A stretch of 64,000 nucleotides of DNA from Candidatus Omnitrophota bacterium (lineage in GTDB: Bacteria > Omnitrophota > Gorgyraeia > JAZDFF01). The notes below the pieces were generated by a model. It ran no database searches. It was given only the letters and a program-made list of their open reading frames with translations, and was not told the DNA's origin. Numbering within the stretch: the stretch's first letter is position 1; each line of letters opens with the position of its first letter. Below, piece after piece: positions 1-26,479 of this stretch. Where the stretch lies: positions 7,868 through 71,867 of the forward strand of contig JAZDFF010000024.1 of assembly GCA_043808095.1 (NCBI GenBank), read 5' to 3'. A program made the position numbers and the translations under genes.

Positions 1-155
1 ATGGCCTTTCCCGTGTCATTTAGAGTAAATATCTCTTCGTCCAAACCCGCAGCAGCAGAAGTTATTGGCACGATAATAAACTCTCCATGGATTTCTCGGG
101 CAACTACGTCTTGAGAGGGTGCATAAACAGAATCAAGATTAACTTTTAATTCCAT
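1..155 (-). CDS. PqqD-family protein (RiPP recognition element-like), partial; 3' end runs off window start
   Basis: Minus-strand ORF with ATG at 153-155, 8 nt downstream of AGGAGG (rev-comp of 164-169). Translation MELKVNLDSVYAPSQDVVAREIHGEFIIVPITSAAAGLDEEIFTLNDTGKA... matches the PqqD/RRE pattern (VxREIxGExIIVP ... LNxTG). Start overlaps the stop (139-141) of the upstream radical SAM gene, consistent with translational coupling. Confidence 0.7.
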   Translation of the reverse strand, partial: MELKVNLDSVYAPSQDVVAREIHGEFIIVPITSAAAGLDEEIFTLNDTGKA

Positions 156-1338
156 AACCATCACCTCCTGTAAAATTTTTTATCCTTTCCTTCCAATCCT
201 CTACTGTCCAAGCCATCTCTTTTTCTTTTAACAAACCCAGGTCCCTTGCTTGAGTATGAGCAAATTCACAGAGATATTCTACGGGCGTATCCAATTTACC
301 GTATTCCATCCAGGACTTGCCAGGACACTGTTCGCACAAACCCTTTAGAAAACAACGGGCACAACGGACAAGATACTCAGGATTGACAGCCTTTATTTCT
401 CTCACCCCAGGGAAGAAATTAGTTAAGGCATCTTTTAAAGATCCTTTCCTAAGATTATAAACCATATCAGGATGCCTGAGATAGATACAAGGCTGAAAGC
501 CTCCGTATGCATTAATGTAACCGCTCCTAATTCCTGAACCACAGGAAAAAAGCCTATCCCCCATAGGCCTAGTAAACCTAGAGCAGAAGATGCGCATTTC
601 ATCAATATACACTTTTCGTCTTCTGGTGAAAATCTTCAGCCCTTCCTTATGCGAAACCCTGAGTTTCTTTATTGCCTCATTCTTCTTTGTATCATCCTGC
701 CGACAGCGCAGGTTAAAAAACATGGAATACGACGGCGGCCCAGGCATCCAAGGGATAGTAGCTGCCCAGGCCTCAAATTCATCTATTTCATCTTTATTAC
801 TAGGCAAAACAGCGCCCTTGACAATAAAAGGAATCTTTTTCTCTAATAATAAATTTATACCACGCCAGGCAGCCTCAAATGAACCAGGTGTTCTGGTTAT
901 GGCTTCATATGAACTCTTCTTCATGCCATAGACCGAAACCTCCATCTTCCCCAAAGGAGGGATACAATAAAATAAATCTGCCAAATGCGGGGTAATCAAA
1001 GTAGCATTGGTAAAAATTGAAACTTTAAGCCCCTGTTTCCTGGCAAATATGTAGAGCTCCTCAAAATCCTCTCTTAAAAGCGGTTCTCCTCCGCTAAATC
1101 TGACTATAATACAGCCTAAGGAGGCTGCTTCCCTAAGGATGTCTTTTATCTCAACCTTAGAAAACTCTTTCTCCATTGCGCCTAGATCATCTTTTGGCAG
1201 ATTAATATAACAATGAATACAATTATTATTGCAACGTTCTGTAAGCTCGATATCCAGACTGCCTAAAAGCGGAAGCTTATCTTTCCATAAAGATACCTTA
1301 TCTATCCCTAATTCTTTAACGTAAGTCTTTCGTCCCAT
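139..1338 (-). CDS. radical SAM/SPASM-domain protein (putative peptide-modifying maturase)
   Basis: 399 aa. CNNNCIHC (Cx3Cx2C) radical SAM cluster near the N-terminus, with FSGGEPLL. C-terminal Cys-rich SPASM-like region (CGSG...CARCFLKGLCEQCPG). Confidence 0.85.
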   Translation of the reverse strand: MGRKTYVKELGIDKVSLWKDKLPLLGSLDIELTERCNNNCIHCYINLPKDDLGAMEKEFSKVEIKDILREAASLGCIIVRFSGGEPLLREDFEELYIFARKQGLKVSIFTNATLITPHLADLFYCIPPLGKMEVSVYGMKKSSYEAITRTPGSFEAAWRGINLLLEKKIPFIVKGAVLPSNKDEIDEFEAWAATIPWMPGPPSYSMFFNLRCRQDDTKKNEAIKKLRVSHKEGLKIFTRRRKVYIDEMRIFCSRFTRPMGDRLFSCGSGIRSGYINAYGGFQPCIYLRHPDMVYNLRKGSLKDALTNFFPGVREIKAVNPEYLVRCARCFLKGLCEQCPGKSWMEYGKLDTPVEYLCEFAHTQARDLGLLKEKEMAWTVEDWKERIKNFTGGDGYGIKS

Positions 1339-1523: not shown

Positions 1524-1721
1524 TTAAGAATCCGTAAGAGTATTGCATTTCTCGCACGACTCAATACCCAATATGCCCATACAGTCTCCTATTGAACCGG
1601 TCGCACTGATGGAAAGGGCTGCAGTTTGGTTATCACGTTTACATCTAGCAAGAATCGCCTCTGCGGGATTTCCTCTTACCAACACAATTAAGTGCGGCTT
1701 CTTCCATTTTTTCTTCTTCAT
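1524..1721 (-). CDS. small Cys-rich peptide, candidate precursor (substrate) peptide of the flanking radical SAM/PqqD/kinase genes
   Basis: 65-aa ORF co-oriented with both flanking radical SAM genes. A perfect AGGAGGTGATAGAGT-ATG Shine-Dalgarno (rev-comp of 1722-1736) precedes the ATG. Lys-rich N-terminus (MKKKKWKKPHLIVL), then a Cys-rich C-terminal third (ARCKRD...GDCMG...ESCEKCNTLTDS) ending in Ser. Confidence 0.45.
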   Translation of the reverse strand: MKKKKWKKPHLIVLVRGNPAEAILARCKRDNQTAALSISATGSIGDCMGILGIESCEKCNTLTDS

Positions 1722-1788
1722 ACTCTATCACCTCCTGTCATTAATTATCTCACCTTTTTCTATTTTCCTCAACTTCCTTTGGTCCCTT

Positions 1789-3744
1789 TCATAAACGCTT
1801 CAGTACGTCTACTACCCTGTCACTCTTGTTAAAATAAAGCCTATAACAAGGAGTCTCGCTAGACAGTCTATCTATAAGCGAAAGTGTCTTCTCCCACCAA
1901 TCAACGGTGGCAAATGGTTTTATCAGACAACTCAGTATCCTATTGGTTATTTCTTTTTTATTATCAATGGTTATTAGCCGATTTTCTTCTGACTTCTCCA
2001 AGAATAATATAGCCTTTAAAGGAGCGGAATTTCCTGAAACATCATGAACATCCCCATGGCTCCAGGTTCCATAAATTTTAAAACCGCGATGAAGTCTTCT
2101 TATAATCATACGCTCATCGCAAAGTATCTCGGCCTCGCCTTTAAGTATTGTGGCCATAGTAGATTTGCCTGCCTCAGAATGACCCACAAAAAGCAATCCC
2201 TTGCCATCAAGATTCACGCCACAGGAGTGAAGATAGCATCCCTGTCTATCAGCTAAAATTTGCGCCAAGAGTAACTGATCAGTAGGAAAAAGGGTAAGGG
2301 AATGCAGATTACCCTTCAAAAATGACTCATCTTTTTCATTGTATATCCTGGCCCTGGTGTAATCATGGTTAAATACAGCTACCTGATGAAAACCATTGTC
2401 TTTTGTAGCAGGAGAGATTCCCAGGTAGATCCAGGAGTCGTCTTTTTTATATATGGCCCAGGGTGGAGTGCGATAAACCTCCATACCTAAGTCCTGCCTG
2501 TTCAAATCAGGAAGACAAAAATGATGCTTTACGGTGATAACTTCCTCTCCCGAATCATCCACCGCAAAATTCCTAAATTTTTGATGAAAAGTAGTATCGG
2601 TTATGGGCAAATCGGATTCTAGTTGGATGGTAATATCGGCAATTCTAAAGTAACGTCGGTGGTCTTTCTTGTAGTTATCTTTGAACTTCTTATTCTCCTT
2701 TGCCACATCGCAGAGATATTCAACTTTGGCTGAGAATCTATGGTGCTCCAAATAGCCATACACCGGACACCATCTACAATCATTCCTTAGCTCGCAAGAA
2801 CCGCAATTTTCAAGATATACTTTTGTAACTTTATTTTTTTTTGCTAAAGAAGGAATAAACTCCTCCCAGCCTTCCTTAAAACTACCCTTTCTTAAGTCAT
2901 AACGAAAAGTAGAATCCTTAATAAAAGGACAGAAGCTCATCTGGCCATAAGGGTCTATATGAAAATCGCGTCTATTGGCTATGCAAGAGGCAAAGAAATA
3001 ATCATTTTTAGCCTGGCTATCGAAGTATTGTTCTGTCTTTTGCGCCACCCGATATTCATAAGACAAATCTGGGTTGTCAATCTCTATTACCTCTTCAGGA
3101 GTAAGCCTTTGTTGAATTATTTCGCTATTTATTTCCGGGACACCGCAAGACGAGAGATAGAACCAAGAAGCGCTAAACCTATAATCAGGGCTTAAGGACT
3201 TAGCTAAATCAATCATCCCCTGAAGTTGATGGTAATTATCCCTCATTGGGATAAGCTGGACAATAAAACCTACTCCTGCTTCCTTTAAATAATTCAGGCC
3301 CCGCATAGTTGCTTCGAACGAACCAGGGTTACGGGTGATATGGTCATGTACTCCAGGAATTGCGCCATAGAGAGCAACCATCTTAGACCCTTTTCTTTTC
3401 ATCAGCCGAGCGATTTCAGGAGTAATCAAAGTACCGTTGGTATTTATAGAATAGGAATTAAAATTACTGGTAAGATAATCAAAAATCGCGGGAAAATCTG
3501 GCCTTAGCATTGGTTCACCGCCAGACATAGACCATCGACGACAACCCATAATTTTGGCCTCATCCACTATTCCTTTTATCTCATCAAAGGACATCTCTTT
3601 TTTCTTTTCTTCAGAATCGGAAGGAATCCTTAACCAGCAGTGCCGACAATTATTGTTACAGCGATAGGTAAGGTCAACGCTTCCTTCAAGTGGAAGGCGT
3701 GGTAAGATATTCGTTTTCTTTATTTGAAGATAATCCTCGGCCAT
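1789..3744 (-). CDS. radical SAM/SPASM maturase fused to C-terminal HprK-like P-loop kinase domain
   Basis: 651 aa. N-terminal CNNNCRHC (Cx3Cx2C) plus MSGGEPML. SPASM-like CGSCELRNDCRWCPVYG. C-terminal region LHSCGVNLDGKGLLFVGHSEAGKSTMATIL matches the HPr kinase/phosphorylase Walker-A region ([24 protein letters not shown] pattern). Confidence 0.8.
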   Translation of the reverse strand: MAEDYLQIKKTNILPRLPLEGSVDLTYRCNNNCRHCWLRIPSDSEEKKKEMSFDEIKGIVDEAKIMGCRRWSMSGGEPMLRPDFPAIFDYLTSNFNSYSINTNGTLITPEIARLMKRKGSKMVALYGAIPGVHDHITRNPGSFEATMRGLNYLKEAGVGFIVQLIPMRDNYHQLQGMIDLAKSLSPDYRFSASWFYLSSCGVPEINSEIIQQRLTPEEVIEIDNPDLSYEYRVAQKTEQYFDSQAKNDYFFASCIANRRDFHIDPYGQMSFCPFIKDSTFRYDLRKGSFKEGWEEFIPSLAKKNKVTKVYLENCGSCELRNDCRWCPVYGYLEHHRFSAKVEYLCDVAKENKKFKDNYKKDHRRYFRIADITIQLESDLPITDTTFHQKFRNFAVDDSGEEVITVKHHFCLPDLNRQDLGMEVYRTPPWAIYKKDDSWIYLGISPATKDNGFHQVAVFNHDYTRARIYNEKDESFLKGNLHSLTLFPTDQLLLAQILADRQGCYLHSCGVNLDGKGLLFVGHSEAGKSTMATILKGEAEILCDERMIIRRLHRGFKIYGTWSHGDVHDVSGNSAPLKAILFLEKSEENRLITIDNKKEITNRILSCLIKPFATVDWWEKTLSLIDRLSSETPCYRLYFNKSDRVVDVLKRL

Positions 3745-3807
3745 TGATATTATTTATCTCTGGAACAACCTTGTAATTCCTAAAATTTGTGTTATTCTAA
3801 TACCAAA

Positions 3808-4917
3808 ATGCTGAATTTAACCAATTCTAAAGAATCAAACTTAATCTTTCTTCTTAGCCGTATAAATCTTAATCACGCTCAATTACAAGAAGCACAACTC
3901 CTTATTGATGCTAAATTTAACTGGAGAGAATTCTTCAAAAAAGCCTACCTCTTAGACATTTATCCTCTTTTATATTATAACCTCAAAAGCATATTTGATG
4001 CAAGTAAAACCTTCCCTGCAGAAATCTATTCACGTATTAAAGTCAGTTATCAATTCAATCTGGCAAATAATCTTAAACTCTGGACCGAGTTTTTACGTGT
4101 AAAGAACCAATTTAATAACATTGATATAAATCATATTCCTTTAAAAGGCATGATCTTTATCCATAGCCTCTATTCTAAATTTGGCTTAAGGTGCCTTAGT
4201 GATATTGATATACTCATAAAAGAAAATGACATATCTGCCTGTGAAAAGCAACTCATCAAGCTAGGGTATCAAAAAGAGAAATTTGTTTCCTTAGCTTACA
4301 GACAAAAATTCCATTGCCACTATTCTTTCTTTAATCCTGACAAAAAAATCATGCTTGAACTGCATTGGGCTTTTGCCCCACCCAGGCCTCGGGTAATTGA
4401 CTTAACCGAAGTCTGGCAAAGAACTAAAATCCAAGTATTCGATAATCAGCAGGTTCTGACTTTAAGTGCCGAGGATACTTTGCTTTCCTTATGCATAAAT
4501 CTTTGCTGCAATATCCCTAACTTACAATTTATTCCTTTTAAAAATTTAGTAGATATCAATGAGCTAATCTCGCAATACAAACAAAATCTAGACTTCAATT
4601 ACATCAAAGATAAACTAGTCCAATGGAAATTGAAAGGTGCTTTTTATTATCTTTATTTTCTCACCCGCTCTTACCTCGACACTCCCTGGCCAGAAGATTT
4701 TATCTCTCAGATTACTATACCGCCATTACAAAAAAGAGCCTTAAGCCTGTATCCTCTAACCCTGAAAAAGAGGTCTCAGCTCCAAGCGATAATTCTAATG
4801 TTCTTGATGCTAAGCAATTTACGCGATGTCTCAAAACTTATCTTAGCAATATCTTCTCAGACCCTCTCTATATTTATCCAAAATAAAAAACTATTTTCCT
4901 ACTATTTAAAAAGATAA
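3808..4917 (+). CDS. nucleotidyltransferase-fold protein (PF14907-like uncharacterised nucleotidyltransferase)
   Basis: GLRCLSDIDILIKEND fits the hG[GS]...DhDh nucleotidyltransferase motif. Overall N-terminal helical region resembles NTP_transf_5 proteins. Divergent from the radical SAM operon. Start is ambiguous (TTG at 3787 or ATG at 3808). Confidence 0.55.
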   Translation: MLNLTNSKESNLIFLLSRINLNHAQLQEAQLLIDAKFNWREFFKKAYLLDIYPLLYYNLKSIFDASKTFPAEIYSRIKVSYQFNLANNLKLWTEFLRVKNQFNNIDINHIPLKGMIFIHSLYSKFGLRCLSDIDILIKENDISACEKQLIKLGYQKEKFVSLAYRQKFHCHYSFFNPDKKIMLELHWAFAPPRPRVIDLTEVWQRTKIQVFDNQQVLTLSAEDTLLSLCINLCCNIPNLQFIPFKNLVDINELISQYKQNLDFNYIKDKLVQWKLKGAFYYLYFLTRSYLDTPWPEDFISQITIPPLQKRALSLYPLTLKKRSQLQAIILMFLMLSNLRDVSKLILAISSQTLSIFIQNKKLFSYYLKR

Positions 4918-5987
4918 TATGCATTATTAATCAATAATCCAAATGTCCTTAATAAAATCTTAAAATCTAAAGCCACCGATTGATTATTGATATAGTAAAG
5001 GTCGTATTCTAAATTTGCTAATATGGGCTGTTTAGTCTGCCCGCTTATCTGCCACAGGCCGGTTATACCGGGTTTAACCAGGAGTCTTTGTTTATGTACT
5101 TCGGCATAATTTTTGACAATAAAAGGCATCTCCGGCCGAGGCCCCACCAAAGACATATCTCCTTTTAAGACATTAAAAATCTGGGGTAATTCATCAAGGC
5201 CTGTCTTGCGTAAAAATCTGCCGGTTCTTGTAATTCTCGGGTCATCGTCTTTAGGCTTTGTCTCATAAATAGGCGAAGAGGCTTCCATAGTGCGGAATTT
5301 ATAGAGCGTAAACTCCCTACCATCTCTGCCTACCCTTTTCTGTCTAAATATAGACGAGCCAGGTGAATCCATCTTTATAAGAAGGATTAATAATAAAATT
5401 AAAGGAAGCATTAAAAATAAAATTAGCAACGAAATAACAATATCAGCGCTCCTCTTAAACAAGTTATATAATTTTATAGGAATTATTTCTGGTGCCTCAA
5501 TTGCACGGATTAAGTATCTTCGTATTATGAGAAACCAAGGCGCATAAAGCGAAAATAGTGAAATTAGATAATTATTAAAACGGCCTAAACCATCTTCTAA
5601 ATCGATAATCTTGCCATCATTTTCTATTCTTATCACTTTACCCAAAATATAATCTTTGGATTCTATGGGCGAATCTGTAGTTCTCCCAAGGTTGTTATCC
5701 CCTTTAGTAAACAATACAAATGATTCATTATGGTTTATTTTTTTAACTAAGCGATGAATTATCATTTTCTTATTACTAATATTCTGACAGGCAATAATAT
5801 CGCCGATTTTCGTATCTTTATAATCAATTGCCTTAATAATTACATATTCGCCATTTTTTATGGTCGGATGCATACTCCAACCTAAGGCTTTTAGCCTAAC
5901 ATTGACACCGCTCTTGAGTAAATCCGAAAATACTTCTCTAAAGATCTCTTCGCAATGCGCAGTATCTTTATCATCTATGACCAACAT
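4902..5987 (-). CDS. fusion: N-terminal S24/S26 (signal-peptidase/LexA-like) peptidase domain plus C-terminal bacterial sugar transferase (polyprenyl-phosphate glycosyl-1-phosphate transferase)
   Basis: N-terminus GWSMHPTIKNGEYVIIKA...KGDNNLGRTTDSPI resembles S26/S24 Ser-Lys peptidase boxes. A hydrophobic segment follows. C-terminus SPGSSIFRQKRVGRDGREFTLYKFRTM...DELPQIFNVLKGDMSLVGPRPE is the Bac_transf catalytic domain signature. Confidence 0.75.
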   Translation of the reverse strand: MLVIDDKDTAHCEEIFREVFSDLLKSGVNVRLKALGWSMHPTIKNGEYVIIKAIDYKDTKIGDIIACQNISNKKMIIHRLVKKINHNESFVLFTKGDNNLGRTTDSPIESKDYILGKVIRIENDGKIIDLEDGLGRFNNYLISLFSLYAPWFLIIRRYLIRAIEAPEIIPIKLYNLFKRSADIVISLLILFLMLPLILLLILLIKMDSPGSSIFRQKRVGRDGREFTLYKFRTMEASSPIYETKPKDDDPRITRTGRFLRKTGLDELPQIFNVLKGDMSLVGPRPEMPFIVKNYAEVHKQRLLVKPGITGLWQISGQTKQPILANLEYDLYYINNQSVALDFKILLRTFGLLINNAYYLFK

Positions 5988-6982
5988 ATAGGCCTCGTAT
6001 TATTATCTAAATTTTTGCTTAAATTCTTTAATTTTATCTTTATAGCCTTTCTTTTTTCTAAAGCTATTTTTAGATATCCGAAAATACGTGGAATTTTTAA
6101 AATAAGCCTTGGCCTAAATAATAAGATATAGCTCCAGAGCTTAAACTCGTAGAATAATACATTGCCTAAACAAGAGATAAAATCTTTTAGTGTATCATTT
6201 TTTATCATCGTTATATAACGGTTCTTTAAAAGATGAAACTGCAGGTCTTCTGATAGATGCGGGAAATAATATCTTCTAAGGCATTCGATATTGGGGGGCT
6301 CGGTTTTAGCTGTTGCTCCTCTTATGTGATAAGCGACAGCCTTCGGGTTATAAAATGCCTTAAAGCCGAAGCGATTTGCCCGCCAGTTAAGGTCTAGGTC
6401 TTCAAGAAACATCCCGTAGGCTGAATCAAAATATTCGCCATCAATTTTTAACATCTCAAGCATCTCTTTCTTATAAAGAGCTGCTACTGCCCCAACGCCA
6501 AAGACATATCCGGGTTCATTAAATTGGCCGTTATTAATCTCCCCAAAACCGCGTTCTTTTGCTGTTCTATCCCCAGAAAGAATCTGGCCGCAAGAATCAA
6601 TTGATTTTCCATCACGACTTAAAATTCTTCCTGTCGCCATTCCGATTTCACTATTTTTTTCAATTGTCTCTACTAATTCTTCTATGTAACATTTTTCTAA
6701 GACTGTGTCATTATTTAAAGACAGGATGTAATCACCATTTGCCTCTTTTATGCCCTGGTTCTGGGCAGAAGAAAATAACCTATTTTCATTATTAACAATC
6801 AATTTTACGAAAGGATAATCAGATTTTAAGATCTCAACGCTTCCATCGCTAGAAGAATTATCTATAACAATTATTTCAATATTTTTATAACTCTGCCTTG
6901 ATACTGAATCCAGGCAACGCCTCAAATATTCTTTTCTGTTAAAATTAACTATTATGACGGATACTGGCTTGTTCTGTTTCAT
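5975..6982 (-). CDS. family 2 glycosyltransferase
   Basis: N-terminal VSVIIVNFNRKEYLRRCLDSV and DNSSSDGS motifs are typical of GT2. Confidence 0.8.
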   Translation of the reverse strand: MKQNKPVSVIIVNFNRKEYLRRCLDSVSRQSYKNIEIIVIDNSSSDGSVEILKSDYPFVKLIVNNENRLFSSAQNQGIKEANGDYILSLNNDTVLEKCYIEELVETIEKNSEIGMATGRILSRDGKSIDSCGQILSGDRTAKERGFGEINNGQFNEPGYVFGVGAVAALYKKEMLEMLKIDGEYFDSAYGMFLEDLDLNWRANRFGFKAFYNPKAVAYHIRGATAKTEPPNIECLRRYYFPHLSEDLQFHLLKNRYITMIKNDTLKDFISCLGNVLFYEFKLWSYILLFRPRLILKIPRIFGYLKIALEKRKAIKIKLKNLSKNLDNNTRPICWS

Positions 6983-7009
6983 TTTGTTACCAACAAAGGA
7001 AACTGTTTG

Positions 7010-10000
7010 TTAAATAACCGAGTGCTCAATAATCTTATCATTATGCAAGATCAAACTTTCATACAATAGTTCCATCTGGGAGGATATTCCCTTGGAATCA
7101 TAAAATCTATCGATTACACCCCTGGCTTTTTCAGCTAAACCATTTTGGCTTAAACCGTTATTTAATATGCCTATGACCGTGTCGGAGAATTTTCCGGGCG
7201 TATCACCTATATAAACAGGATCTTCGGGCTCTATCTTTAAACCTTTGACTGACTGGCTGGTGGCAACTACGGGTATGCCCATAGCCAGGGCCTCTAAAAT
7301 CTTTACCTTAAGGCCCGCGCCTTTGCGTATGGGAGAAACTAATAATTTTGATCTTGCCAGGTAGGGTCTAACATCATCTACCTCGCCGACTATACGGATA
7401 TTCTTATCATCCTTTATTTTCTCTAAATCAATACTACCCATATTGGAGCCTATAATATGGAAATTTACCCCGGGCATTTTGCTTTTGATTAAGGGGAATA
7501 TTTTATCACAGAAATATAACAGCCCGTCGACATTGGGATAATGTAACATATGGCCTACGAACAAAATATCTATGCTTTTGTTAATATCTTTAGGCAACTG
7601 GTATGAGGCAAGATCAATGCCAATTGGGATGACAGAGATTTTGTCTGGAGACACTGCTCTTCTGGCGATTTTACGGTCCTCCTCTGTAAAGGTAACTATC
7701 TTATCGAAATAAAGATAAATCCGCTTCTGGAAAAGTACCCAATTCAACCAATCGAAAAACCGGAAAATCCTTCCGAAGGCAGGTTTTTCGTAAGAATTGC
7801 TCAGGGTATAAATACTCGTATCGTGTTCAACGAGAATTTTGGGGATATTTGGGATAAATTTTGCATAATAAGCCATGTTAGCGTATTCAATCTGGACTAA
7901 ATCTATACGATAGTCATTAAGGCAGCTCTTGATAAGGCCTGCCATCTCCTTTGCATAAAAGTATTTTATGAAGGCGGGAAGTGTCACCTTATTAAACACG
8001 CTATGCCAGGTGGGACGCCGTAAAACAGTGAAAACCTTTTTGCATAACTTGTTTAATTCTGGAATATGTCTTTCCTGATCCTGGTTTTCAATAAAGGAAA
8101 CTAAGATAATTTCATATTTATCCCTTAAACTCTTCAGTGAATTATACATCTTGATTTGGCCGCCGGACTTTAAGGGATAGGGTAAAAACGGAGTAATGAA
8201 CATGATTGTCGGTTTAGAAGATATATCTTGATTGTCATTATATTTAAAATCCTGATAAATTTCTTGAGAATTATGGAATATCTCTTTATCCGTCTTAAGA
8301 TAATAGCTCCTGTTATAGAATCTCCGGCTTAAGGCTTTCGTCAAACTACCCAAGGTCATGAAATAACCTCTTAACATAGCCTTTTTTTCGCTCTTAAGGC
8401 TAAAATATAACGGGAAGAGCAGGAAATGTTTTAAAACCAAATCTAAATCAGTAATATTTTTCCAGGTAAACAATAATTCATTTTTTACTTCGATAGAGCG
8501 GGAAAATGAACCAATGGTCCCATGCATTTTATGAAACATTAAGCTTTTTGGTTCATATATTACGCTAAAACCCATCTTTTGCGCTCTGTATGATATATCA
8601 ATATCCTCCCAGCTATAAGGCTCAAAGATATTATCAAAACCACCTAAGGCCAAAAATTCTTCTTTCAAAAAACAGGCTGCGCAACCCACGGCAAACATAG
8701 TTGACGAAGGGCTTTGGATATAAGGCGTAGCTGACACATCTTTTTCATTCCAAATATGGATATATCCATAATTAAAATCACCAAAAAAGTTGCCGTTGAT
8801 AAAGGTTTTTCTATCCCAGGCATAGAGTCTCGGACTAACAGCAAAAGTATTCTTATTTTTTAAATGGTTTATCAGATGTCCTAATGAATCTTCAGTAACA
8901 ATAATATCGTTATTTAATAAGATAATTATCTCGTTCTTTGCTTGGCCTATACCGATATTACAACTTTTGCCGAAACCCAGATTCTTCTCGTTAGAAATTA
9001 TCCTAACGCGAGGAAAATAAATCCTTAGATAGCTGGCTGTCTCGTCGCAACTGGCATCATCGACAACCAGGATCTCATTTCCAAAATCAGCCTTAAATTC
9101 CTTAGTTTTATATATTGACGACAGGCATTCCTTAAGATACTCCAGACCATTATAAGAAGGAATGACTACACTAATCTTTGATCCGGTTTCGGTTTTTCTT
9201 CCAGGTTTAGGAGGTATTTGCTTAATACTAAATAACTTCACCAATCTCCAAAGAATGCCTTCGGCAAGGAAAATTAACGCCAATAAAAAAGAAATAGGAT
9301 ATAGCAATAGAGCGAACAATAAACATACCGGCTGTGAAATATTTTTTACAGAATTATTCAAAAAGTTTCGAGTACTCAAAATCAAAGTCCATAATGGTCG
9401 CAGGACAAATCTAAATCCTTCTGAGGAATAAATGTCATTTAACTCTTTTAGTTTCTGGCTAAGAGTCTCCCGGGTTTCAATAAGCGCGGACCTTACGAGA
9501 TCTACTTCTTTTATCCTTTGTTCTAATTGAAATTTAGTTTGCAAAAGTACGGTCTTTAAAGAAACGAATTCTTTGTCTTTCTCAGAAATACTCTTTATGC
9601 ACTCTTTTATATTTTTTTCTTTAGCTAATATTTCCTTGATTAGAAAATTACTCTCAGAATTGTTAATCTTCTTTAATTCTAAGAAAATCTCATCTAAAAT
9701 ATTTTTTATATCTTCATTTTTATTATGTTTAACTAATTTAAAAATCACTTCGGGTAGAATCTGGAAAATTTTTCCGGTATGCTCTAGATGTTTACGACAG
9801 CTAAAATATCCCTTGCCAAAAAGGACTCCAGCTAAATTCTTAGGATAATGTTTGGCAACAAAAAACAATCTGTTGCGCTCTATGTAAAATTGAGAAAACT
9901 CATCACTTGCTGTTCCGTGAAAGGCATGATAAATCATACTTTCGGGTACGAATACGACCTTAAAACCTTCGTCTTTTATCCTTTTTGCCATATCCACGTC

Positions 10001-10567
10001 TTCAAAATAAATGTTAAAATCTTCATCTAAAAGACCTACCTTATCAAAAATCTCTCTGCGAAACATAACGGCTGCACCGCAAAGGCTGGACACCTCTTCT
10101 GGTTTATTATATCGACTGGCTTCTTCGCCGAATCCCCGCTCTGCCCAGTAAAAGTTCGGTAATTCAATATGTCCAGCATTCTGGATTCTGCCGTCCATAA
10201 GCAGAATTTTACTGCCAGCCATTGCGATTCTTTCATCCCTGAGCATCGCTTCCACCAAATTTATCAACCAATCTTTATCTGCCCTGGTGTCATTGTTTAT
10301 TAGAACAATAAAATCACCCTTTGCCTGCCTTATGGCCAAGTTATTAGCCTTACAGTAGTTATTAACATCATTCTGGAGTATTTTAACCTTAGGATAATTT
10401 TCTTTGACAAAACCTTGTGAACCATCCACAGAGCCGTTATCAACCATAATTATCTCTATCTTCGAATTTGGATAATTTAGTGCAAATAAAGAATCAAAAT
10501 AGTCTTTTAAGTGTTTCCTGCCGTTGTAATTCACGGTAATTACTGAAACAAAGGGATACTCTTTCAT
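7010..10567 (-). CDS. multidomain glycosyltransferase (GT2 - coiled coil - GT2 - GT4/group 1)
   Basis: 1185 aa. FVSVITVNYNGRKHL...DNGSVDGS (GT2). Central coiled-coil/TM region. ISVVIPSYNGLEYLKEC...VDDASCDET (second GT2). C-terminal EALAMGIPVVATS (group 1 GT). Confidence 0.8.
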   Translation of the reverse strand: MKEYPFVSVITVNYNGRKHLKDYFDSLFALNYPNSKIEIIMVDNGSVDGSQGFVKENYPKVKILQNDVNNYCKANNLAIRQAKGDFIVLINNDTRADKDWLINLVEAMLRDERIAMAGSKILLMDGRIQNAGHIELPNFYWAERGFGEEASRYNKPEEVSSLCGAAVMFRREIFDKVGLLDEDFNIYFEDVDMAKRIKDEGFKVVFVPESMIYHAFHGTASDEFSQFYIERNRLFFVAKHYPKNLAGVLFGKGYFSCRKHLEHTGKIFQILPEVIFKLVKHNKNEDIKNILDEIFLELKKINNSESNFLIKEILAKEKNIKECIKSISEKDKEFVSLKTVLLQTKFQLEQRIKEVDLVRSALIETRETLSQKLKELNDIYSSEGFRFVLRPLWTLILSTRNFLNNSVKNISQPVCLLFALLLYPISFLLALIFLAEGILWRLVKLFSIKQIPPKPGRKTETGSKISVVIPSYNGLEYLKECLSSIYKTKEFKADFGNEILVVDDASCDETASYLRIYFPRVRIISNEKNLGFGKSCNIGIGQAKNEIIILLNNDIIVTEDSLGHLINHLKNKNTFAVSPRLYAWDRKTFINGNFFGDFNYGYIHIWNEKDVSATPYIQSPSSTMFAVGCAACFLKEEFLALGGFDNIFEPYSWEDIDISYRAQKMGFSVIYEPKSLMFHKMHGTIGSFSRSIEVKNELLFTWKNITDLDLVLKHFLLFPLYFSLKSEKKAMLRGYFMTLGSLTKALSRRFYNRSYYLKTDKEIFHNSQEIYQDFKYNDNQDISSKPTIMFITPFLPYPLKSGGQIKMYNSLKSLRDKYEIILVSFIENQDQERHIPELNKLCKKVFTVLRRPTWHSVFNKVTLPAFIKYFYAKEMAGLIKSCLNDYRIDLVQIEYANMAYYAKFIPNIPKILVEHDTSIYTLSNSYEKPAFGRIFRFFDWLNWVLFQKRIYLYFDKIVTFTEEDRKIARRAVSPDKISVIPIGIDLASYQLPKDINKSIDILFVGHMLHYPNVDGLLYFCDKIFPLIKSKMPGVNFHIIGSNMGSIDLEKIKDDKNIRIVGEVDDVRPYLARSKLLVSPIRKGAGLKVKILEALAMGIPVVATSQSVKGLKIEPEDPVYIGDTPGKFSDTVIGILNNGLSQNGLAEKARGVIDRFYDSKGISSQMELLYESLILHNDKIIEHSVI

Positions 10568-10580
10568 AATAAATATCGGC

Positions 10581-11630
10581 TTAAATTAAATTTTGCTTCT
10601 CTATGAAATTGTAAAGGTATTCTGCTGCAATATTGTGTCCCGATAAATTGAAATGCCCGTAGGCAGGGAAATTTGTATCATTGTAAAGATGTTCTTTTGC
10701 CTCGATAACGTCGGCTAAATTACAAACGTTTTTTATCGCCAGGTCCTGATTTATAGTAAGGGCGTCTTTGCCCAAAATACCGCTTGAAATAAATTCGACT
10801 CTCTTTCTTTTCAAAAAATTGTAAATATGAGAGACATGGATCCTGTAATTATCATACCCTAACATGTAATAATACTTTTTAGGTACCTCTTCCATGGTAT
10901 TCGGCGGGTTCCACTTAACATATGTTACCTCTTCTAGGCCTGGATAAGGATAAATTAACTGTTCATGATAATACATTCCTAATATTTTTTTCTTAAAAGT
11001 TAGCCAGTACTTTCTTATTGATTTATTACTTGTTTGTTTATTTATTAATATATCAACACCTCTAAAAAAAGTATGAAAAAAATAAGATTTATTATATAGA
11101 TATTTTAGGGGCGTGATGTCCGACTTAATGTAATTGCAAATATGTGTATCATTTTCACAATATATAAGTATAACCATATCCGGATTGAATTTAATGACCT
11201 TTTCCTTAATGACCTCGAATTCCTGCGATGTATTGTATCCGGGTACTGAAAAGTTTATAACTTCAAATTTATTTGCTCGCCTTTCATTTAATAATCTTTC
11301 CAATATTTTAGGAAAGCTATTTTCACCACCCACCCCCCAGCCAAAAGACGTAGAATCACCCACCACGGCTATCCTGTAAGTCCCTAGTGGCTTATGAATT
11401 GGAAAATATCGGTCATTTAAGCCCTGGGAGTTAATCTTGGTCTTCAGAATAGGCGCGATATAACCCGGATAAAGCTCGTATACCACCCGATCATTCTTAG
11501 ATGGTCTATACCCTTGGCAATAAAGCCTTGGGTTTAGCCTTACAAATAACTCTCCCAATAGAGACAAGAATATTAATGCCGAGACTAAAATAAAAATTCT
11601 AAAAATCAATAAGGAACGCTGTTTCATCAT
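10581..11630 (-). CDS. SGNH/GDSL-family hydrolase, membrane-anchored
   Basis: N-terminal TM helix, then RIAVVGDSTSFGWGV (GDS(L) block I). Confidence 0.6.
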   Translation of the reverse strand: MMKQRSLLIFRIFILVSALIFLSLLGELFVRLNPRLYCQGYRPSKNDRVVYELYPGYIAPILKTKINSQGLNDRYFPIHKPLGTYRIAVVGDSTSFGWGVGGENSFPKILERLLNERRANKFEVINFSVPGYNTSQEFEVIKEKVIKFNPDMVILIYCENDTHICNYIKSDITPLKYLYNKSYFFHTFFRGVDILINKQTSNKSIRKYWLTFKKKILGMYYHEQLIYPYPGLEEVTYVKWNPPNTMEEVPKKYYYMLGYDNYRIHVSHIYNFLKRKRVEFISSGILGKDALTINQDLAIKNVCNLADVIEAKEHLYNDTNFPAYGHFNLSGHNIAAEYLYNFIEKQNLI

Positions 11631-11649
11631 TTAACCAAACTGTAAAAAA

Positions 11650-12630
11650 TCACCATTGCCCAGATGATGTCGTATTCAAATTCAGCACATCTTGGTCTTT
11701 AATATACCTGAAAATATTATTAGCGATTATTGAATAACCTTCTTTATTTGGATGCCAATTGTCACGCAAAAGATATTTCTTAATTGACTCCTGTTTGGTT
11801 ATCGCATTAAAAGTATCGTCATTTCGAATTAGGGGTATATTTTCTCTTGCAGCAAGCGAAATAAATTCATCGATAGAAATATAAGAATTGGAATTAATAT
11901 GATAAGTCATTAGCAAAACGCGGATGTTGCTTTTTTTTGATTCTTCGATTATATTCGAAATATCGTATCTCCACATTTTTACGAAAGAATCCTTATGAGT
12001 TATTGCAAAATCATAGATCCATTTTTGAGGTGGAAAACGAGAAAACTGGGGGAATCCTATAAAAGAATAACGATTGGCCAAGATATGCTTGGAATTTTCT
12101 TTAATAATAAATTTCAGATAAAGGAAGCGTAACATCTTAAAAGTCCTTGAGTTATTCAGCATGACTAATGATTTAATTTTCAGCGTATCGTTATCGGAAT
12201 TATTTAAAAATTTAACTACATTGCTTTCTCCTAATGACCATGCGTTATTTATCCCGGCCATCAAAATAATCAGCCCTGGTCTATACAATTTAATATAATG
12301 CTTAATCCTGTTTGAAATTTGAGAAGTATTTTGTCCGATATGGATAGGAATGATAACATTGATATCCGCATTATGATAATATTCTCTCAACTTACTTTCT
12401 AATTGCTTTGGATATGAATCCTCGAAATCAACCCATAAACCCGCGGTAGATGACTCGCCCAGACAGATAATATTTATTCCTGTATTGAATTTCCGGTCCT
12501 GGCCATCATAATAGAATTTCTTAAGATATAAATAACCTGTGATTCTTAATACTGCTTCGAAAACACAAATAGAAATAACAAAATAGAGAAAAGCCGTTTT
12601 CAGATTAGATAAAAATTTATTTTTTGACAT
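11650..12630 (-). CDS. SGNH-hydrolase-like protein, membrane-anchored
   Basis: N-terminal TM helix. IICLGESSTAGLW (GDS-like block). C-terminal DNWHPN (DxxH catalytic pair). Confidence 0.5.
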   Translation of the reverse strand: MSKNKFLSNLKTAFLYFVISICVFEAVLRITGYLYLKKFYYDGQDRKFNTGINIICLGESSTAGLWVDFEDSYPKQLESKLREYYHNADINVIIPIHIGQNTSQISNRIKHYIKLYRPGLIILMAGINNAWSLGESNVVKFLNNSDNDTLKIKSLVMLNNSRTFKMLRFLYLKFIIKENSKHILANRYSFIGFPQFSRFPPQKWIYDFAITHKDSFVKMWRYDISNIIEESKKSNIRVLLMTYHINSNSYISIDEFISLAARENIPLIRNDDTFNAITKQESIKKYLLRDNWHPNKEGYSIIANNIFRYIKDQDVLNLNTTSSGQW

Positions 12631-15600
12631 TTATAAAATTATTAACTGCCAATATATAATTTATTCTACTTTTTATTTCTTTGCCGATTACATTAAAATT
12701 AAGATTCTTCCTGACATCCTCTTGAGCAATTTTACCGACCTTTAGAGATAACTCTTTCTTTTCATAAACACATCTCATCAATTCTGCAGCATGTTGGATA
12801 TCCGGCTCTGCCCAAACCTTGCCTTTTCTGTACGGGCCGATGTCTCGATTTATATCGGTTAATCTATATTTTACAAGATAGCTATTAGAAACATTCATAA
12901 AATCGGTATTTCCGGAATAACCCGTGGCAATAACGGGTTTTCCTAAATACATTGCCTCAGCCATTGTTAGGCCAAACCCCTCCGAACGGTGCAAAGACAC
13001 ATAGGAATCGCACAAAGCCATAAGAGTGTTAATCTCTTCTTTAGTAAAATATCCTTCGATTATATTGATATTATGACCCCGCGAAACCTCGTTCATAACC
13101 TTCATTGCCGCGGGGTCAAAAGATTGATTGCAGCATTTGATAACTAATCTGACTTTTTCTAGCGGGGAAAAGGCCTCTTTAAAAGCCTTAATAACAGCAA
13201 GGGGGTTTTTGCGTTCAAAGTAGCTTAAGAAATCAAAGACAAATAGAAATATAAAATCATAATCGTTTAATCCAAAATACATCCTGTCTGCATCTTTAGC
13301 TTTATCAATCGACACAGAAATTGGCATCTTGATAACAGGAACTGGAGATTTTCTGGCAATAGCGGCAAGGCTGAAACTGCTGGGAGTCCAAATTTCATTA
13401 CAGTAGCTAAAACCTTCGAGCCATTCATCAGGAAAATCGGAAAGCTCCCAATTCCAGACTCCGATGTTATATTTATTCTCAAAATAACCCTTGCCTTTCT
13501 CCACATATAACCTTGAGAACATATCTGCGTTCACATGGATCAAATTTATATAATAGGGGTTGCTTGAAGAAAACCGGGAAAAAGAATGATCATTTTGCCG
13601 GGAATATGAATGATCAGGGATATTTAGTAAAGACACGCCGACACCTGCCTGTTCTAGGCATCTGATATTTGCCCTTGCACATTCGCCAACCCCGACTTCC
13701 GCAGTCAGATACCCCCAGATATTCACTCCTTTCGTGCTGCCTTCATCTTTAGCGTATACTGAATCTTTGGAATATAATTTAGAAAAGTTGAATACTTTTG
13801 ACCATAAACGCATCTCCATTGATTTTAGATTGCTTATCATCTTTAAGTTGTTGCGGAATAATATCTTCAAATATTTCTTAAAGAAGTTTCTGATTATATT
13901 TATAATTTTTATCCTGAGATTAACCGCCAGCACTAGCTTTCTCTCGGACTTATTAGCATAGATCTTGCTTAAAAATATGTCCTCGAGCATATATTCTTGC
14001 TTGGCGTTTAGAAAAAACCAATCTGAAAATGCCTTCCGGTGAAAATTAAATACATCAGGGTAAATGCGCTTCACATCCGGACGGCTATCATATATGCCTA
14101 ACATCAATCTTGTAATGCTGGGTTTTTTGGTATCAGCATCTTCATTTAGCCATTTCAAGAAACTATATCCTCTTGTTGTATCAAACGGATTACCAAATTT
14201 ACTCTTCAAAGCGCCGCCGGCCTCCCAATAAATTTTTCTCGCCGCATCCGGAATACTGATGCCATTGTCAAAAAACGTAAAGTGACAAGGCCAACTCCTG
14301 TTTTCCTCATACCCATGGCTCATAAGATGCTCTTTATACAGATCAAATATCGGGCTCATATGTTTTATATCTTTTAATAGGTATCTATCCTGGTGCTTGG
14401 AAATAGAGTTTATATTATCAAGCTGAACACCGCTAAAATGCAGGAAATTTACCGGTTTGTTATCGATCAAAAAGCGAGAACCTTCAATATAGACCTTTCG
14501 GTAATGAAAATTCCAATAGGCAATATTGTAACTATGGTCTCTTAATATAAAAACATCTTCAAAAAAACCGGGTATTAAATCAATCCATTTCTGGTCTACA
14601 AAAAGCCCTCTTTCAAGGTCAACTTTACAATAACGATTTAAACGTTCCTGCCACCATCTTAGTAACACCCCCGTAGAATTCTTATCGGATAAAGCGATAA
14701 AACCCAGATTATACACCCCGCTTCTTAAAATATCGCATTCATTTGGCTTGTGAGTATCTTTATAAGGCTGGGTTATATGGGGAATAAGGACTATGGAATA
14801 TTTATCTAAAAGACAGAAAAGTTCGTTAAGATTATTTGTTATTAAAATATCCGGGTCAAAGAATACGAGTTTTTTAAGGCCGTAATGCTCAAATAAAAAC
14901 TCCAAGAAAAATGGTTTTACCGCAGTATTTAGTTCCGTTAAGTTATATTGAAAACAGAATTTATCAAAATCCGGGATTTTATGCTTTATCTGGTCGACCT
15001 CGATTAAGGTAAAATTCTCTTTATTCGGGTCAAAATATCCGTCAATATAATCGGTTAATAAAACAAATACCCTGCCTTTGTTATATTTTAAGTAAGAGTC
15101 GGCTAATACGCGCGCATAGGCCAGGTAGTTTTTGGAAATTATTGTACAGATTCCAATTTGGCCGGTATCGACTCCAGGAGCCCCGACTTCCAGAGGAGGG
15201 CACGCATCTCTTGAAACTAAAAGTTCCGAGGATTTATTGCCCCTTGCTATCTGCTTAATTTCCCAGAGCATCGTCCAAAGCGGCTTCACCAAATACCTAA
15301 ACGCCGTAGAAGTATAGACATCATTCAATTCCTGCTCTCTTCTTTTTATCTGGTAACTTAAGCTATTTATATAAGTATCTTTTTCTTTAATGGCCTGACT
15401 AATATTATTTACCTCAAGGCCAAGAATATTTATGGACTGCTCTTTTTGTTGGAGTGCATTATCCAGTTTTGCTATCTGTAGATTAAGGTCTTTTAGGTTG
15501 GTCTCTTTTTCATTAATAAGTTCGCTCTTATTATTTAATTCTAAATTTACATTATTTAATTCTCGGGTAAGAACGCAGATTTCGTTATCTTTATCTTTTA

Positions 15601-17275: not shown

Positions 17276-18552
17276 GGTAAATTAATTCTCCAGCTATGTT
17301 CAAGATAAAGAATGCCGTGATCAGGTCTATCTGATATCACTTCAAAATTATAATAGCCGTTATGATAATCGTAAGCAAAGCGCTCGTCTTTCTGCCAGAT
17401 GGCAATGGATAATCTATATTTGCCCGGTAATAAATTTAGGCCTTTATATTCGATTGAAAATGATCCGTTACCAGGTTTTAACTTATCGATTTTTATGCCG
17501 TCAAACCTGGTATTTGGCCCATAACAGTATGTGCCGTCTTCTTTGAAGATGGCTACCCCGAAATGAGGGTCTTCTATTATTCTATGGGCGGTATATCTTA
17601 CTACTATCTTTGCCCTTTCGCCTGTCTTAAATATGTCCGTTTCTTCATTTCTTGTATTTAGTAATTTAACCTCCAAAATCTCGGCTTCTTTGGTTCCGAT
17701 TTTAGCCCCCCATCCTTCTTTAGGGGCTAAATTTGTTTTTTGTCCAAAATTGCTAACGACGACCGTATCAGCTGGTTTTCTCACCCGAGATTGAACAAAA
17801 ACCGGTTCTGTCTTCTTGCTCATCCGGTCCTGATAAAAACCAATAACTTCTTCTGGCAGACCTTCTTCTAAAACTCTCCCTTTTTCTAATAATACCACCT
17901 TATCGCATAATCTTTTAAGTAATTCTAGAGATTGGGAAACGAGTATCAAGGTCTTACCGGATTTTCTAAAATCGGTTAACCTCTCTAAGCATTTATTTTG
18001 AAATGAAAGGTCTCCTACGGTAAGCATCTCATCAATTAACAAAATATCAAAGTCGACATTAATAGCAATGGCAAAACCCAGGCGCATATACATTCCCGAA
18101 GAATAAGTCATAAGCGGCACATTGATAAAATCGCCTAATTCAGAAAATTCTACTATGTCTTTAAAACGCCTCTTTATCTCCCTCATCCTTAGCCCTAATA
18201 TTGAGCCATTAATATAAATATTTTCTTCTCCGGTTAATTCCGGATGAAAACCTGCCCCTAAACTCAATAAGGCAGAGACTTTGCCGTTAACAAAAATCCT
18301 GCCTTCGGTAGGGGTGGTTATCCCGGAAATTATGTTAAGAAGAGTGGTTTTCCCCGCGCCGTTACTGCCCATAATTCCTAAGGTCTCGCCTCTTTCTATG
18401 TCTAAACTTAAGTCTTTCAGGGCCCAGAATTCTTCAAAACTCTTAACCTTTAGAAACCTCGGCAATATATGCCTGACGATTGCCTCTTTCTCATGCAAAA
18501 TCACATATTTCTTGCCTATTCCAATAAACTTTACTGCAATCATTTTTACCAA
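17272..18552 (-). CDS. polysaccharide/O-antigen export ABC transporter ATP-binding protein (Wzt/TagH-like) with C-terminal extra domain
   Basis: Walker A GIMGSNGAGKTTLLN, signature YSSGMYMRLGFA, Walker B LLIDE. A ~170-aa C-terminal extension is typical of Wzt carbohydrate-binding domains. Confidence 0.85.
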   Translation of the reverse strand: MVKMIAVKFIGIGKKYVILHEKEAIVRHILPRFLKVKSFEEFWALKDLSLDIERGETLGIMGSNGAGKTTLLNIISGITTPTEGRIFVNGKVSALLSLGAGFHPELTGEENIYINGSILGLRMREIKRRFKDIVEFSELGDFINVPLMTYSSGMYMRLGFAIAINVDFDILLIDEMLTVGDLSFQNKCLERLTDFRKSGKTLILVSQSLELLKRLCDKVVLLEKGRVLEEGLPEEVIGFYQDRMSKKTEPVFVQSRVRKPADTVVVSNFGQKTNLAPKEGWGAKIGTKEAEILEVKLLNTRNEETDIFKTGERAKIVVRYTAHRIIEDPHFGVAIFKEDGTYCYGPNTRFDGIKIDKLKPGNGSFSIEYKGLNLLPGKYRLSIAIWQKDERFAYDYHNGYYNFEVISDRPDHGILYLEHSWRINLP

Positions 18553-18557
18553 CGCCT

Positions 18558-21896: not shown

Positions 21897-21990
21897 TTAA
21901 TGAACGGATGCAAACTGATTTTAGCGGATGTAAACGGATTAAATTTTATCCGTGAAATCCGTAACTATTCGTTTGAATCCGTGATTAAAT
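21897..21990. promoter_or_regulatory. array of six ACGGAT/ATCCGT half-sites around a central palindrome AACGGATtaaattttATCCGT, upstream of the UGM-like gene
   Basis: Direct copies at 21904, 21924 (gcggat) and 21934. Inverted copies at 21948, 21957 and 21977. Spacings are multiples of ~10 bp. Confidence 0.55.
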
Positions 21991-22016
21991 ATCTTAAGTT
22001 TTTAACCTGAATAATT

Positions 22017-24133: not shown

Positions 24134-24234
24134 GTAAAAATTATTGATTGCAGTGATTTTGTAAAGAAGATTTCAGTGATTAATACTTCAATCACCGGAA
24201 TCTATTTTATAATCACAGTAATCATCTTCATTTT

Positions 24235-25026: not shown

Positions 25027-25068
25027 TTAAATAAACACATAATTTACGAACACGACAGTGTGAGTAAA

Positions 25069-26476: not shown

Positions 26477-26479
26477 ATT

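Follow-up and report, generated by a model that had tools for sequence, protein, structure and literature searches.

The fusion gene and the two halves of its product

The window analyzed here, a 64,000-nucleotide stretch of contig JAZDFF010000024.1 from a Candidatus Omnitrophota bacterium, contains close to one edge a gene (1789..3744, minus strand) that joins a radical S-adenosylmethionine (SAM)/SPASM maturase to a ScmC domain with the fold of HprK/P and phosphoenolpyruvate carboxykinase (PEPCK). It consists of one unbroken open reading frame (ORF) of 651 codons with an ATG start. Directly downstream on the same strand lies a 65-codon ORF for a putative precursor peptide (1524..1721), equipped with a strong ribosome-binding site (GGAGGTG) and followed by the gene of a second radical SAM/SPASM maturase of 399 amino acids, here termed rSAM-A (139..1338; 62 to 66% identity to its orthologs in the related loci L003 and L001). 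Then come the first 54 codons of a gene for a PqqD-family peptide chaperone (1..164, minus strand; 66% identity to the PqqD protein of L003, PF05402), which is cut by the window edge. A gene for an "uncharacterised nucleotidyltransferase" of the NTP_transf_5 family (3787..4917, plus strand; PF14907, E = 5e-45) is oriented divergently from the fusion gene. It is very likely that the fusion protein is a bifunctional maturase of a ribosomally made, posttranslationally modified peptide (RiPP), with an HprK-fold phosphotransferase domain.

The identical protein is on record as MFH1202022.1, "radical SAM protein [Candidatus Omnitrophota bacterium]," from a 72-kb contig of a metagenome-assembled genome (MAG). 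At least 120 protein clusters of about 650 amino acids are 64 to 70% identical to it at a query coverage of 96 to 100% (98 to 100% in all but one), and an alignment of 57 diverse fused homologs showed that the domain junction is kept, with R364 present in at least 97% of them. In the AlphaFold2 model, the last SPASM helix (residues 342 to 362) passes directly into the first ScmC strand (residues 363 to 368), with a predicted local distance difference test score (pLDDT) near 90. No flexible or low-confidence linker separates the domains in the full-length model (pLDDT, 84.7; predicted template modeling score, 0.74). An earlier note on this DNA, made from the sequence alone, had named a sequencing frameshift between two ORFs as the finding that would overturn the fusion; the unbroken ORF, the colinear full-length clusters, and the conserved junction rule out such an artifact. 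The note's proposal that a radical SAM/SPASM enzyme and an HprK-like P-loop domain reside on one polypeptide is thus borne out by the single ORF, the domain matches, and the model, with shifted boundaries: the radical SAM/SPASM half extends over residues 1 to about 362 instead of 430 amino acids, and the C-terminal half comprises 289 residues (363 to 651), a beta-rich subdomain followed by the P-loop core, instead of about 170.

The N-terminal half, rSAM_N (2659..3744, minus strand), belongs to the Radical SAM superfamily, matching PF04055 over residues 25 to 180 (E = 9e-24; 84.9 bits versus a cutoff of 29.5). Its CX3CX2C motif (C29, C33, and C36 in CNNNCRHC, residues 29 to 36; 3637..3660, minus strand), which binds the radical SAM [4Fe-4S] cluster, and the SAM-binding GGE motif (G75-G76-E77) are invariant in the 57 fused homologs, which come from many phyla. 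Equally invariant are seven further cysteines (residues 254, 272, 314, 317, 323, 326, and 345; 2710..2985, minus strand). Both the CNNNCRHC motif and the SPASM-type cysteine cluster read by the earlier note are therefore present. The seven cysteines show the pattern for two auxiliary [4Fe-4S] clusters, and the fold is SPASM-like, the nearest solved structures found by Foldseek being the RiPP radical SAM SPASM/twitch enzymes SkfB, SuiB, anSMEcpe, PqqE, and CteB. The canonical spacing is CX2CX5CX3C, and C314-x2-C317-x5-C323-x2-C326 (CX2CX5CX2C) differs from it in a single residue. The SPASM model TIGR04085 remained narrowly below its cutoff (21.9 bits versus 27; E = 1.8e-4), and PF13186 gave no match in rSAM_N at E values of up to 10. 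Since all ten Fe-S cysteines and the GGE motif are fully conserved, rSAM_N should nevertheless be functional as a radical SAM enzyme and bind two auxiliary clusters. With AlbA, SkfB, CteB, PapB, SuiB, and anSME, it has in common the CX3CX2C motif, the seven-cysteine auxiliary region, cysteine-rich precursors, and a PqqD-type leader partner. Unlike these enzymes, it has no N-terminal RiPP recognition element (RRE), is fused to a kinase-like domain, and matches SPASM hidden Markov models (HMMs) only weakly.

The C-terminal half, the ScmC domain (1792..2658, minus strand), adopts in an AlphaFold model of residues 363 to 651 (pLDDT, 90.3) the PEPCK/HprK P-loop fold, its beta-rich N-terminal subdomain aligning better to PEPCK than to the HprK N-domain. 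The Walker A motif GHSEAGKST (residues 521 to 529; 2158..2184, minus strand) includes K527 and is strongly conserved, with G521, G526, K527, and T529 each found in at least 97% of the 57 homologs. H506 (2227..2229, minus strand) is invariant and, in HMM alignments to the structures 1jb1 and 3tqf, falls on the catalytic His known from HprK/P and the lasso peptide kinases, and D543-E544 (2113..2118, minus strand) aligns in sequence with the metal-binding Asp-Asp of the same enzymes. The string LHSCGVNLDGKGLLFVGHSEAGKSTMATIL, which the earlier note likened to the HprK/P catalytic core, corresponds to residues 505 to 534 (nucleotides 2143 to 2232). When a profile of the ScmC domain was compared with the sequences of the PDB, HprK/P matched with E values of 0.07 to 0.7, and the alignment placed H506, GxxxxGKS, and D543-D/E544 onto the His, P-loop, and Asp-Asp of HprK/P.

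The C-terminal 289 residues scanned alone matched, in NCBIfam, ScmC (TIGR04249) best (E = 1.4e-8; 34.5 bits versus a cutoff of 125), followed by HprK-related kinase B (1.2e-6), HPr(Ser) kinase/phosphatase (9.6e-5), and HprK-related kinase A (6e-3), each match falling below its curated cutoff. The HprK/P family models themselves failed (Hpr_kinase_C PF07475, 14.0 bits versus 33.3, E = 0.038; TIGR00679, 21.8 bits versus 240). In the Pfam scan, the window protein matched PF04055 alone, and its placement in PF27840 ("ScmC") rests on close homology, this family being precomputed on all 240 homologs listed, which are 53 to 71% identical over the whole domain. An HprK-like identity, as opposed to the unrelated P-loop NTPase that the earlier note had held against its own assignment, is upheld by the PEPCK/HprK fold of the model and the aligned catalytic residues. 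We therefore describe the ScmC domain as an HprK/PEPCK-fold P-loop phosphotransferase, presumably active, that carries the catalytic His, the Walker A Lys, and the Asp-Asp(Glu) pair. It shares its fold with HprK/P and PEPCK and its catalytic residues with HprK/P, and unlike HprK/P it has no HPr or carbon catabolite context.

Composition and spread of the cassette

The genes around the fusion gene are part of a recurrent cassette. In related loci, the complete set comprises ScmC with or without rSAM_N, rSAM-A (about 395 amino acids), PqqD (about 103 amino acids), an S24/S26-type peptidase (about 170 amino acids), and a further radical SAM enzyme, rSAM-B (about 375 amino acids); an ABC exporter is often added, and NTP_transf_5 is often close by. 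An rSAM-A ortholog of about 395 to 411 amino acids comes after ScmC in every related cassette. Composition was counted in 31 loci flanked by 5 kb or more on both sides: rSAM-A and rSAM-B occurred in all 31, PqqD in 30, and the S24/S26 peptidase in 27, while NTP_transf_5 and the ABC exporter were each detected in 15 of the 31, counts that are probably underestimates because they come from blastp with divergent queries. NTP_transf_5 adjoins the cassette in L001, L003, and L005. From the two radical SAM enzymes seen in the window, the earlier note had deduced two distinct radical modifications; complete relatives have three radical SAM paralogs. Sequence identities of 29 to 34% to both rSAM-A and rSAM-B indicate that the fused enzyme is itself the third paralog and not a usual cassette enzyme joined to its neighbor. 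We met rSAM_N solely as part of a fusion or in pieces left by disrupted genes. In contrast to thioether peptide maturases, the three paralogs of the window-type cassette seem to share one short peptide.

The fusion is neither rare nor new to the databases. The ScmC-domain profile retrieved 333 representative clusters with an E cutoff of 1e-30, a number that rose to 4,227 with a cutoff of 1e-10. Among the best 150 representatives, 17 are full-length fusions of about 617 to 680 amino acids with ScmC at about residues 350 to 650, some 11 of 416 to 591 amino acids are probably truncated fusions, and the remainder are stand-alone proteins of about 290 to 360 amino acids. In GTDB data reduced to one genome per species, 297 stretches encode a ScmC relative, and the best 79 of these loci contain 78 ScmC domains, 64 fused and 14 unfused. 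The architecture is already on record as PF04055 plus PF27840, the proteins being annotated simply as "radical SAM protein." The premise of the earlier note that the two activities are normally encoded by separate genes is thus wrong for the ScmC family, in which fusion is the dominant form, and its portrayal of the fusion as unusual is overstated, given how common the architecture is in public data. Fused proteins were found in Omnitrophota, MAGs labeled Planctomycetia, Syntrophorhabdales, Margulisiibacteriota, Anaerolineales, Acidobacteriota, Victivallales, Bacillota, Chlorobiaceae, WOR-3, Desulfobacteraceae, and Geobacter, and among archaea in Methanothrix/Methanotrichaceae and Methanoregula.

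None of the unfused loci examined contained an intact separate rSAM_N ortholog; in L078, the sole rSAM_N fragment upstream of an unfused ScmC gene looks like the remnant of a broken fusion gene. In a rough neighbor-joining tree without support values, most unfused proteins form one clade, and those of L028 and L056 nest among fused Omnitrophota sequences, a placement that suggests repeated gain or loss of the fusion. Some loci carry more than one ScmC gene: L019 encodes two fused paralogs (1528..3510, minus strand, and 6912..8888, plus strand), and L032 encodes a stand-alone ScmC protein (3492..4469) and a fused one (6918..8897).

In its component types, ScmC, paralogous PqqE-like radical SAM/SPASM proteins, and a PqqD-like protein, the cassette resembles SynChlorMet (ScmD, TIGR04248; ScmC, TIGR04249; ScmE, TIGR04250; ScmF, TIGR04251; PF27840). 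Both systems are computationally defined, and their phyletic spread is similar (Syntrophorhabdales, Chlorobiaceae, and methanogens). ScmC is the best NCBIfam match of the C-terminal domain, and ScmF and ScmE are among the top matches of the radical SAM parts encoded in the window. Strict equivalog membership was, however, rejected on score cutoffs. Besides ScmC (34.5 versus 125), the window proteins missed those of ScmF (90.8 versus 400) and ScmE (69.6 versus 400), and the unfused relative L001 likewise fell short for ScmC (38 versus 125), ScmE (91.2 versus 400), and ScmD (26.8 versus 100). Since every equivalog cutoff was missed widely, even by unfused L001, the scores place the window-type cassette as a sister system inside the broader Pfam ScmC family and outside the strict SynChlorMet cassette. 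It also differs from SynChlorMet in that ScmC is fused to an extra radical SAM paralog, in the S24/S26 peptidase, in the frequent presence of NTP_transf_5 and an ABC exporter, and in having an identifiable precursor family. To our knowledge, the TIGRFAMs description of SynChlorMet gives no precursor.

Precursor peptides and the proposed modifications of their C-terminal tail

Small ORFs beside the cassette in distant phyla share the leader K-x-W-x-K-P-x-L-x-V-L-x-x-G-x-P-E-E-x-V-L-x-x-C-K. The precursor encoded in the window has the leader KKWKKPHLIVLVRGNPAEAILARCK, a core with three further cysteines, and the end SCEKCNTLTDS. An HMM built from 34 peptides obtained by database search recovered 105 nonredundant precursors in GTDB loci, and another 112 nonredundant precursors came from metagenome loci picked by the leader alone, giving 217 in total. 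The precursor peptide has no match in Pfam or NCBIfam.

The number and spacing of the cysteines follow the presence of the fused radical SAM enzyme. All 18 precursors of unfused loci (11 from genomes and 7 from metagenomes) have exactly three cysteines, including that of the invariant Cys-Lys, with the last two 5 to 11 residues apart. Fused loci, in contrast, encode precursors with at least four cysteines in 99 of 106 cases, the last two mostly separated by 2 to 3 residues in a C-x2/3-C-x5-S tail (Fisher P = 2e-16), and the pattern recurs in the leader-selected metagenome set. The precursor in the window (...SCEKCNTLTDS) agrees with the fused-locus pattern. L028 and L056, both unfused Omnitrophota loci, have three-cysteine peptides though their nearest relatives are fused, and L006 and L032, both of which carry fused and unfused ScmC genes, between them yield both tail spacings as well as three- and four-cysteine precursors. 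Counted after Cys-Lys, the cysteines thus equal the radical SAM paralogs in number, two or three.

These observations bear on an alternative in which the fused radical SAM half is a catalytically idle duplicate, a docking scaffold that brings ScmC to a complex of rSAM-A and rSAM-B, with no third radical modification implied. Its origin as a paralog of these two enzymes and the fact that unfused cassettes work without it are compatible with such a role, but the complete conservation of the ten Fe-S cysteines and the GGE motif across phyla and the co-occurrence of rSAM_N with the extra precursor cysteine in two independent data sets make it very improbable. The earlier note had gone further and taken the fusion to imply obligate coupling of radical chemistry and phosphotransfer on the same substrate. 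Action of both domains on one substrate is plausible and is backed by the C-x2/3-C-x5-Ser tail, seen solely together with the fused radical SAM enzyme; that the two would be coupled we infer. In class III and IV lanthipeptide synthetases (LanKC and LanL), a Ser/Thr kinase domain and other RiPP-modifying domains likewise act on the same peptide from one polypeptide. Their kinase domain has an unrelated, eukaryotic-like protein kinase fold and they perform no radical chemistry, which leaves the parallel at the level of analogy.

The second regularity concerns the very end of the precursors. The last residue is Ser in 178 and Thr in 34 of the 217 peptides, compared with 13 to 15% Ser/Thr in that position among other ORFs of the same loci (binomial P of about 1e-168). 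Four of the five deviating sequences are truncated or degenerate copies, and the fifth, from L119, ends in Pro. Of the 212 precursors that end in Ser/Thr, 181 have a cysteine at position -7, while positions -2 to -6 vary. Several loci contain arrays of 6 to 8 divergent precursor genes with the common leader and the C-x5-S/T end (L120, 5405..16600; L074, 2261..12801; L063, 886..11972); the 20 kb of L120 that were analyzed contain no maturase gene. The Pro-ending ORF of L119 (8373..8561, also present in L116; ...RDPPTP) is the sole full-length precursor-like ORF without a terminal Ser/Thr. No ScmC gene was found within 12 to 20 kb in this locus, whose other precursors do end in Thr or Ser.

A terminal Ser as the target of an HprK-like enzyme has a precedent in lasso peptides. 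In linear lasso precursors, the conserved Ser at the C terminus is phosphorylated on its side chain by the HprK-family kinases PadeK, ThcoK, SyanK, and PsmK (PMC9266682, PMC6993621). A His-Lys-Asp-Asp set was shown to be essential in the lasso kinases (PMC9266682), for the Asp pair also by D158A/D159A in PsmK (PMC6993621). In pseudomycoidin, the "uncharacterised NTP transferase" PsmN adds a hexose onto the phosphate (PMC6993621), and lasso clusters with such kinases encode a PqqD/RRE protein and often an "uncharacterised nucleotidyltransferase" (PMC9266682, PMC6993621). Compared by description, the cassette examined here shares with them the HprK-family P-loop, the His-Lys-Asp-Asp set, PqqD, and the C-terminal Ser on a RiPP precursor, which as a sequence feature is present in our family with Ser/Thr in 212 of 217 peptides (...TLTDS in the window). 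Unlike the lasso kinases, the window-type kinase is fused to a radical SAM enzyme, the core chemistry is that of radical SAM enzymes, and Thr is also allowed at the C terminus. Neither a lasso cyclase (Asn synthase-like) nor a B protease was found among the Pfam-annotated genes of L001 to L005 or the window ORFs between 1 and 12 kb, and in view of their absence the window-type system is not a lasso system.

On balance, we favor with some confidence that the fusion protein is a RiPP maturase with two activities, both directed at the C-terminal tail, and that its kinase half phosphorylates the last residue, Ser or Thr, in the manner of paeninodin; that it is specifically the hydroxyl of this residue which receives the phosphate we put at about even chances. 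The steps of this pathway, as we infer them, would begin with the 65-residue peptide of 1524..1721 as the substrate, its leader presumably held by the separate PqqD protein of the cassette. rSAM_N would install a Cys-derived cross-link at the extra cysteine, 2 to 3 residues before the last one, because that cysteine occurs solely where rSAM_N exists, and the two other radical SAM paralogs would modify the remaining cysteines. Using a nucleoside triphosphate, the ScmC domain would phosphorylate the hydroxyl of the near-invariant C-terminal Ser/Thr, by the precedent of the lasso kinases. The fusion may thereby hold on one scaffold two enzymes that both work on the last 10 or so residues (C-x2/3-C-x5-S). 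The S24/S26 peptidase would take off the leader and the ABC transporter would export the product, in which the phosphate could stay as it is or give NTP_transf_5 a point of attachment.

The strict C-x5-[S/T]-COOH spacing also suggests a physical link between the two residues, and two further explanations build on it. In the first, ScmC would phosphorylate the C-terminal Ser/Thr and the phosphate would serve as a leaving group, giving a C-terminal dehydroalanine or dehydrobutyrine; attack by Cys(-7) would then form a seven-residue lanthionine-like ring, or hydrolysis would leave a C-terminal amide. This logic is that of class III and IV lanthipeptide synthetases and of thiopeptide C-terminal amidation. 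It draws on the same kinase fold and catalytic residues as simple phosphorylation and accounts for the acceptance of both Ser and Thr, as in lanthipeptides. We consider it unlikely, given that no lyase or cyclase homolog was seen in any cassette and that the cysteines after Cys-Lys match the two or three radical SAM paralogs, leaving no spare cysteine for a nonradical ring. Moreover, the sole characterized HprK-like RiPP kinases retain the phosphate on the product (PMC6993621, PMC9266682). In the second explanation, for which the chances appear similarly small, the C-terminal Ser/Thr would accept a thioether from Cys(-7) made by a radical SAM enzyme, of the sactionine or ranthionine type, and ScmC would not be a peptide kinase but an NTP-binding accessory (a nucleotide-driven clamp or chaperone for the tail) or a small-molecule phosphotransferase like PEPCK. 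Against it stands that the domain has kept the whole His-Lys-Asp-Asp set of peptide and protein kinases beyond the P-loop alone, that its nearest sequence families are all of the HprK type, and that the combination of an HprK-like enzyme, a C-terminal Ser, and a frequent "uncharacterised nucleotidyltransferase" mirrors the clusters of phosphorylated lasso peptides.

Several points weigh against phosphorylation of the tail by ScmC and the associated role of rSAM_N. The fixed distance between Cys(-7) and Ser/Thr(-1) fits the acceptor of a radical SAM cross-link equally well. Practically every cassette has both ScmC and a precursor with C-terminal Ser/Thr, so that a dependence of one on the other is not separable; no cassettes without ScmC were found as a control, the ScmC-less loci being truncated contigs or isolated precursor arrays. 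The window protein has Glu at position 544, at which at least 90% of homologs have Asp. NTP_transf_5 was detected in just about half of the well-flanked loci, and its equivalence to PsmN is presumed. The counts that relate the fusion to the extra cysteine take no account of shared ancestry, and the tree that indicates repeated change of the fusion state carries no support values. In the literature searched, we found no mention of the SynChlorMet cassette and no HPr kinase paired with a radical SAM/SPASM RiPP system, and searches for ScmC, PF27840, TIGR04249, and PF14907 gave nothing relevant, with no biochemistry for any ScmC protein.

It is tempting to speculate, though we would rate the joint proposal somewhat below an even chance, that these cassettes define an unrecognized, widespread RiPP class, present in Methanothrix and Methanoregula as well as in numerous phyla of anaerobic bacteria, in which an HprK-fold kinase, usually fused to a radical SAM enzyme, phosphorylates the terminal residue. 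Its three marks would be the W-x-K-P-x-L-x-V-L...E-E-x-V-L-x-x-C-K leader, the invariant C-x5-Ser/Thr-COOH tail, and one radical SAM paralog per core cysteine. If true, this would be the first kinase chemistry joined to radical SAM peptide cross-linking on one polypeptide and the first function and substrate for the ScmC/SynChlorMet superfamily. Confirmation would extend HprK-type C-terminal phosphorylation from lasso to radical SAM peptides and reveal a RiPP class common to uncultured bacteria such as Omnitrophota and methanogenic archaea. New in this work are the precursor family and the rule that governs its C terminus, the association of the fused radical SAM enzyme with the extra cysteine, and a testable kinase hypothesis for ScmC, with a substrate (the 65-residue peptide), a predicted site (its C-terminal Ser), and catalytic residues (H506, K527, and D543). 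For annotation, entries now called "radical SAM protein" could be named bifunctional maturases, and the unannotated precursor genes could be called.

Neighboring genes and further features

Close to the cassette, on the far side of NTP_transf_5, a 361-residue protein (4902..5987, minus strand) unites an archaeal/SipW-type signal peptidase I (TIGR02228, 63.4 bits versus 51.85) with a Bac_transf phosphoglycosyl transferase (PF02397, E = 4e-64), an unusual pairing. We considered it as the cassette peptidase and rejected it; the longer "S24" ORFs that fill the peptidase slot elsewhere are without Bac_transf (two have GNAT), and the true slot falls after PqqD, past the window edge; exact look-ups for more of the contig on that side gave no match. 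The window, L001, L003, and L005 had hinted at a steady link of the cassette to glycosylation genes, which found no support: a similar glycosyltransferase lay within about 8 kb in just 9 of 27 further loci. A scan of window positions 1 to 5000 for promoters and terminators gave counts no different from those of shuffled sequence.

Some related cassettes contain additional enzymes. In L054 (4713..5735) and L063 (4739..5737), both from Methanothrix/Methanotrichaceae, the S24-type peptidase and a GNAT acetyltransferase domain form one protein, which hints at an additional acetylation step. In L004, whose contig is shared with L009, a MiaB-like radical SAM gene (10949..12058; UPF0004 plus Radical_SAM) lies between the fusion gene and rSAM-A, and the fusion gene is flanked by two different precursor genes. 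An unrelated small radical SAM/SPASM gene for about 275 to 305 amino acids stands beside some cassettes (L001, 10363..11271; L005, 8653..9570), its best match, below the cutoff, being a tungsten-cofactor oxidoreductase maturase family.

Farther into the window, a run of glycan synthesis genes includes one for a single protein of 1,185 amino acids with two GT2 domains and a GT4/GT1 domain (7010..10567, minus strand), besides a GT2 gene (5975..6982) and a gene for a GDSL-like protein (10581..11630). The guanine-plus-cytosine content is 34 to 37% over the glycan gene region (4000..26000) versus 41 to 48% over the next 30 kb or so (26000..58000). Nearly all large ORFs between 4000 and 58000 are on the minus strand, as is the largest ORF of the window (12617..17275), which encodes 1,552 amino acids.

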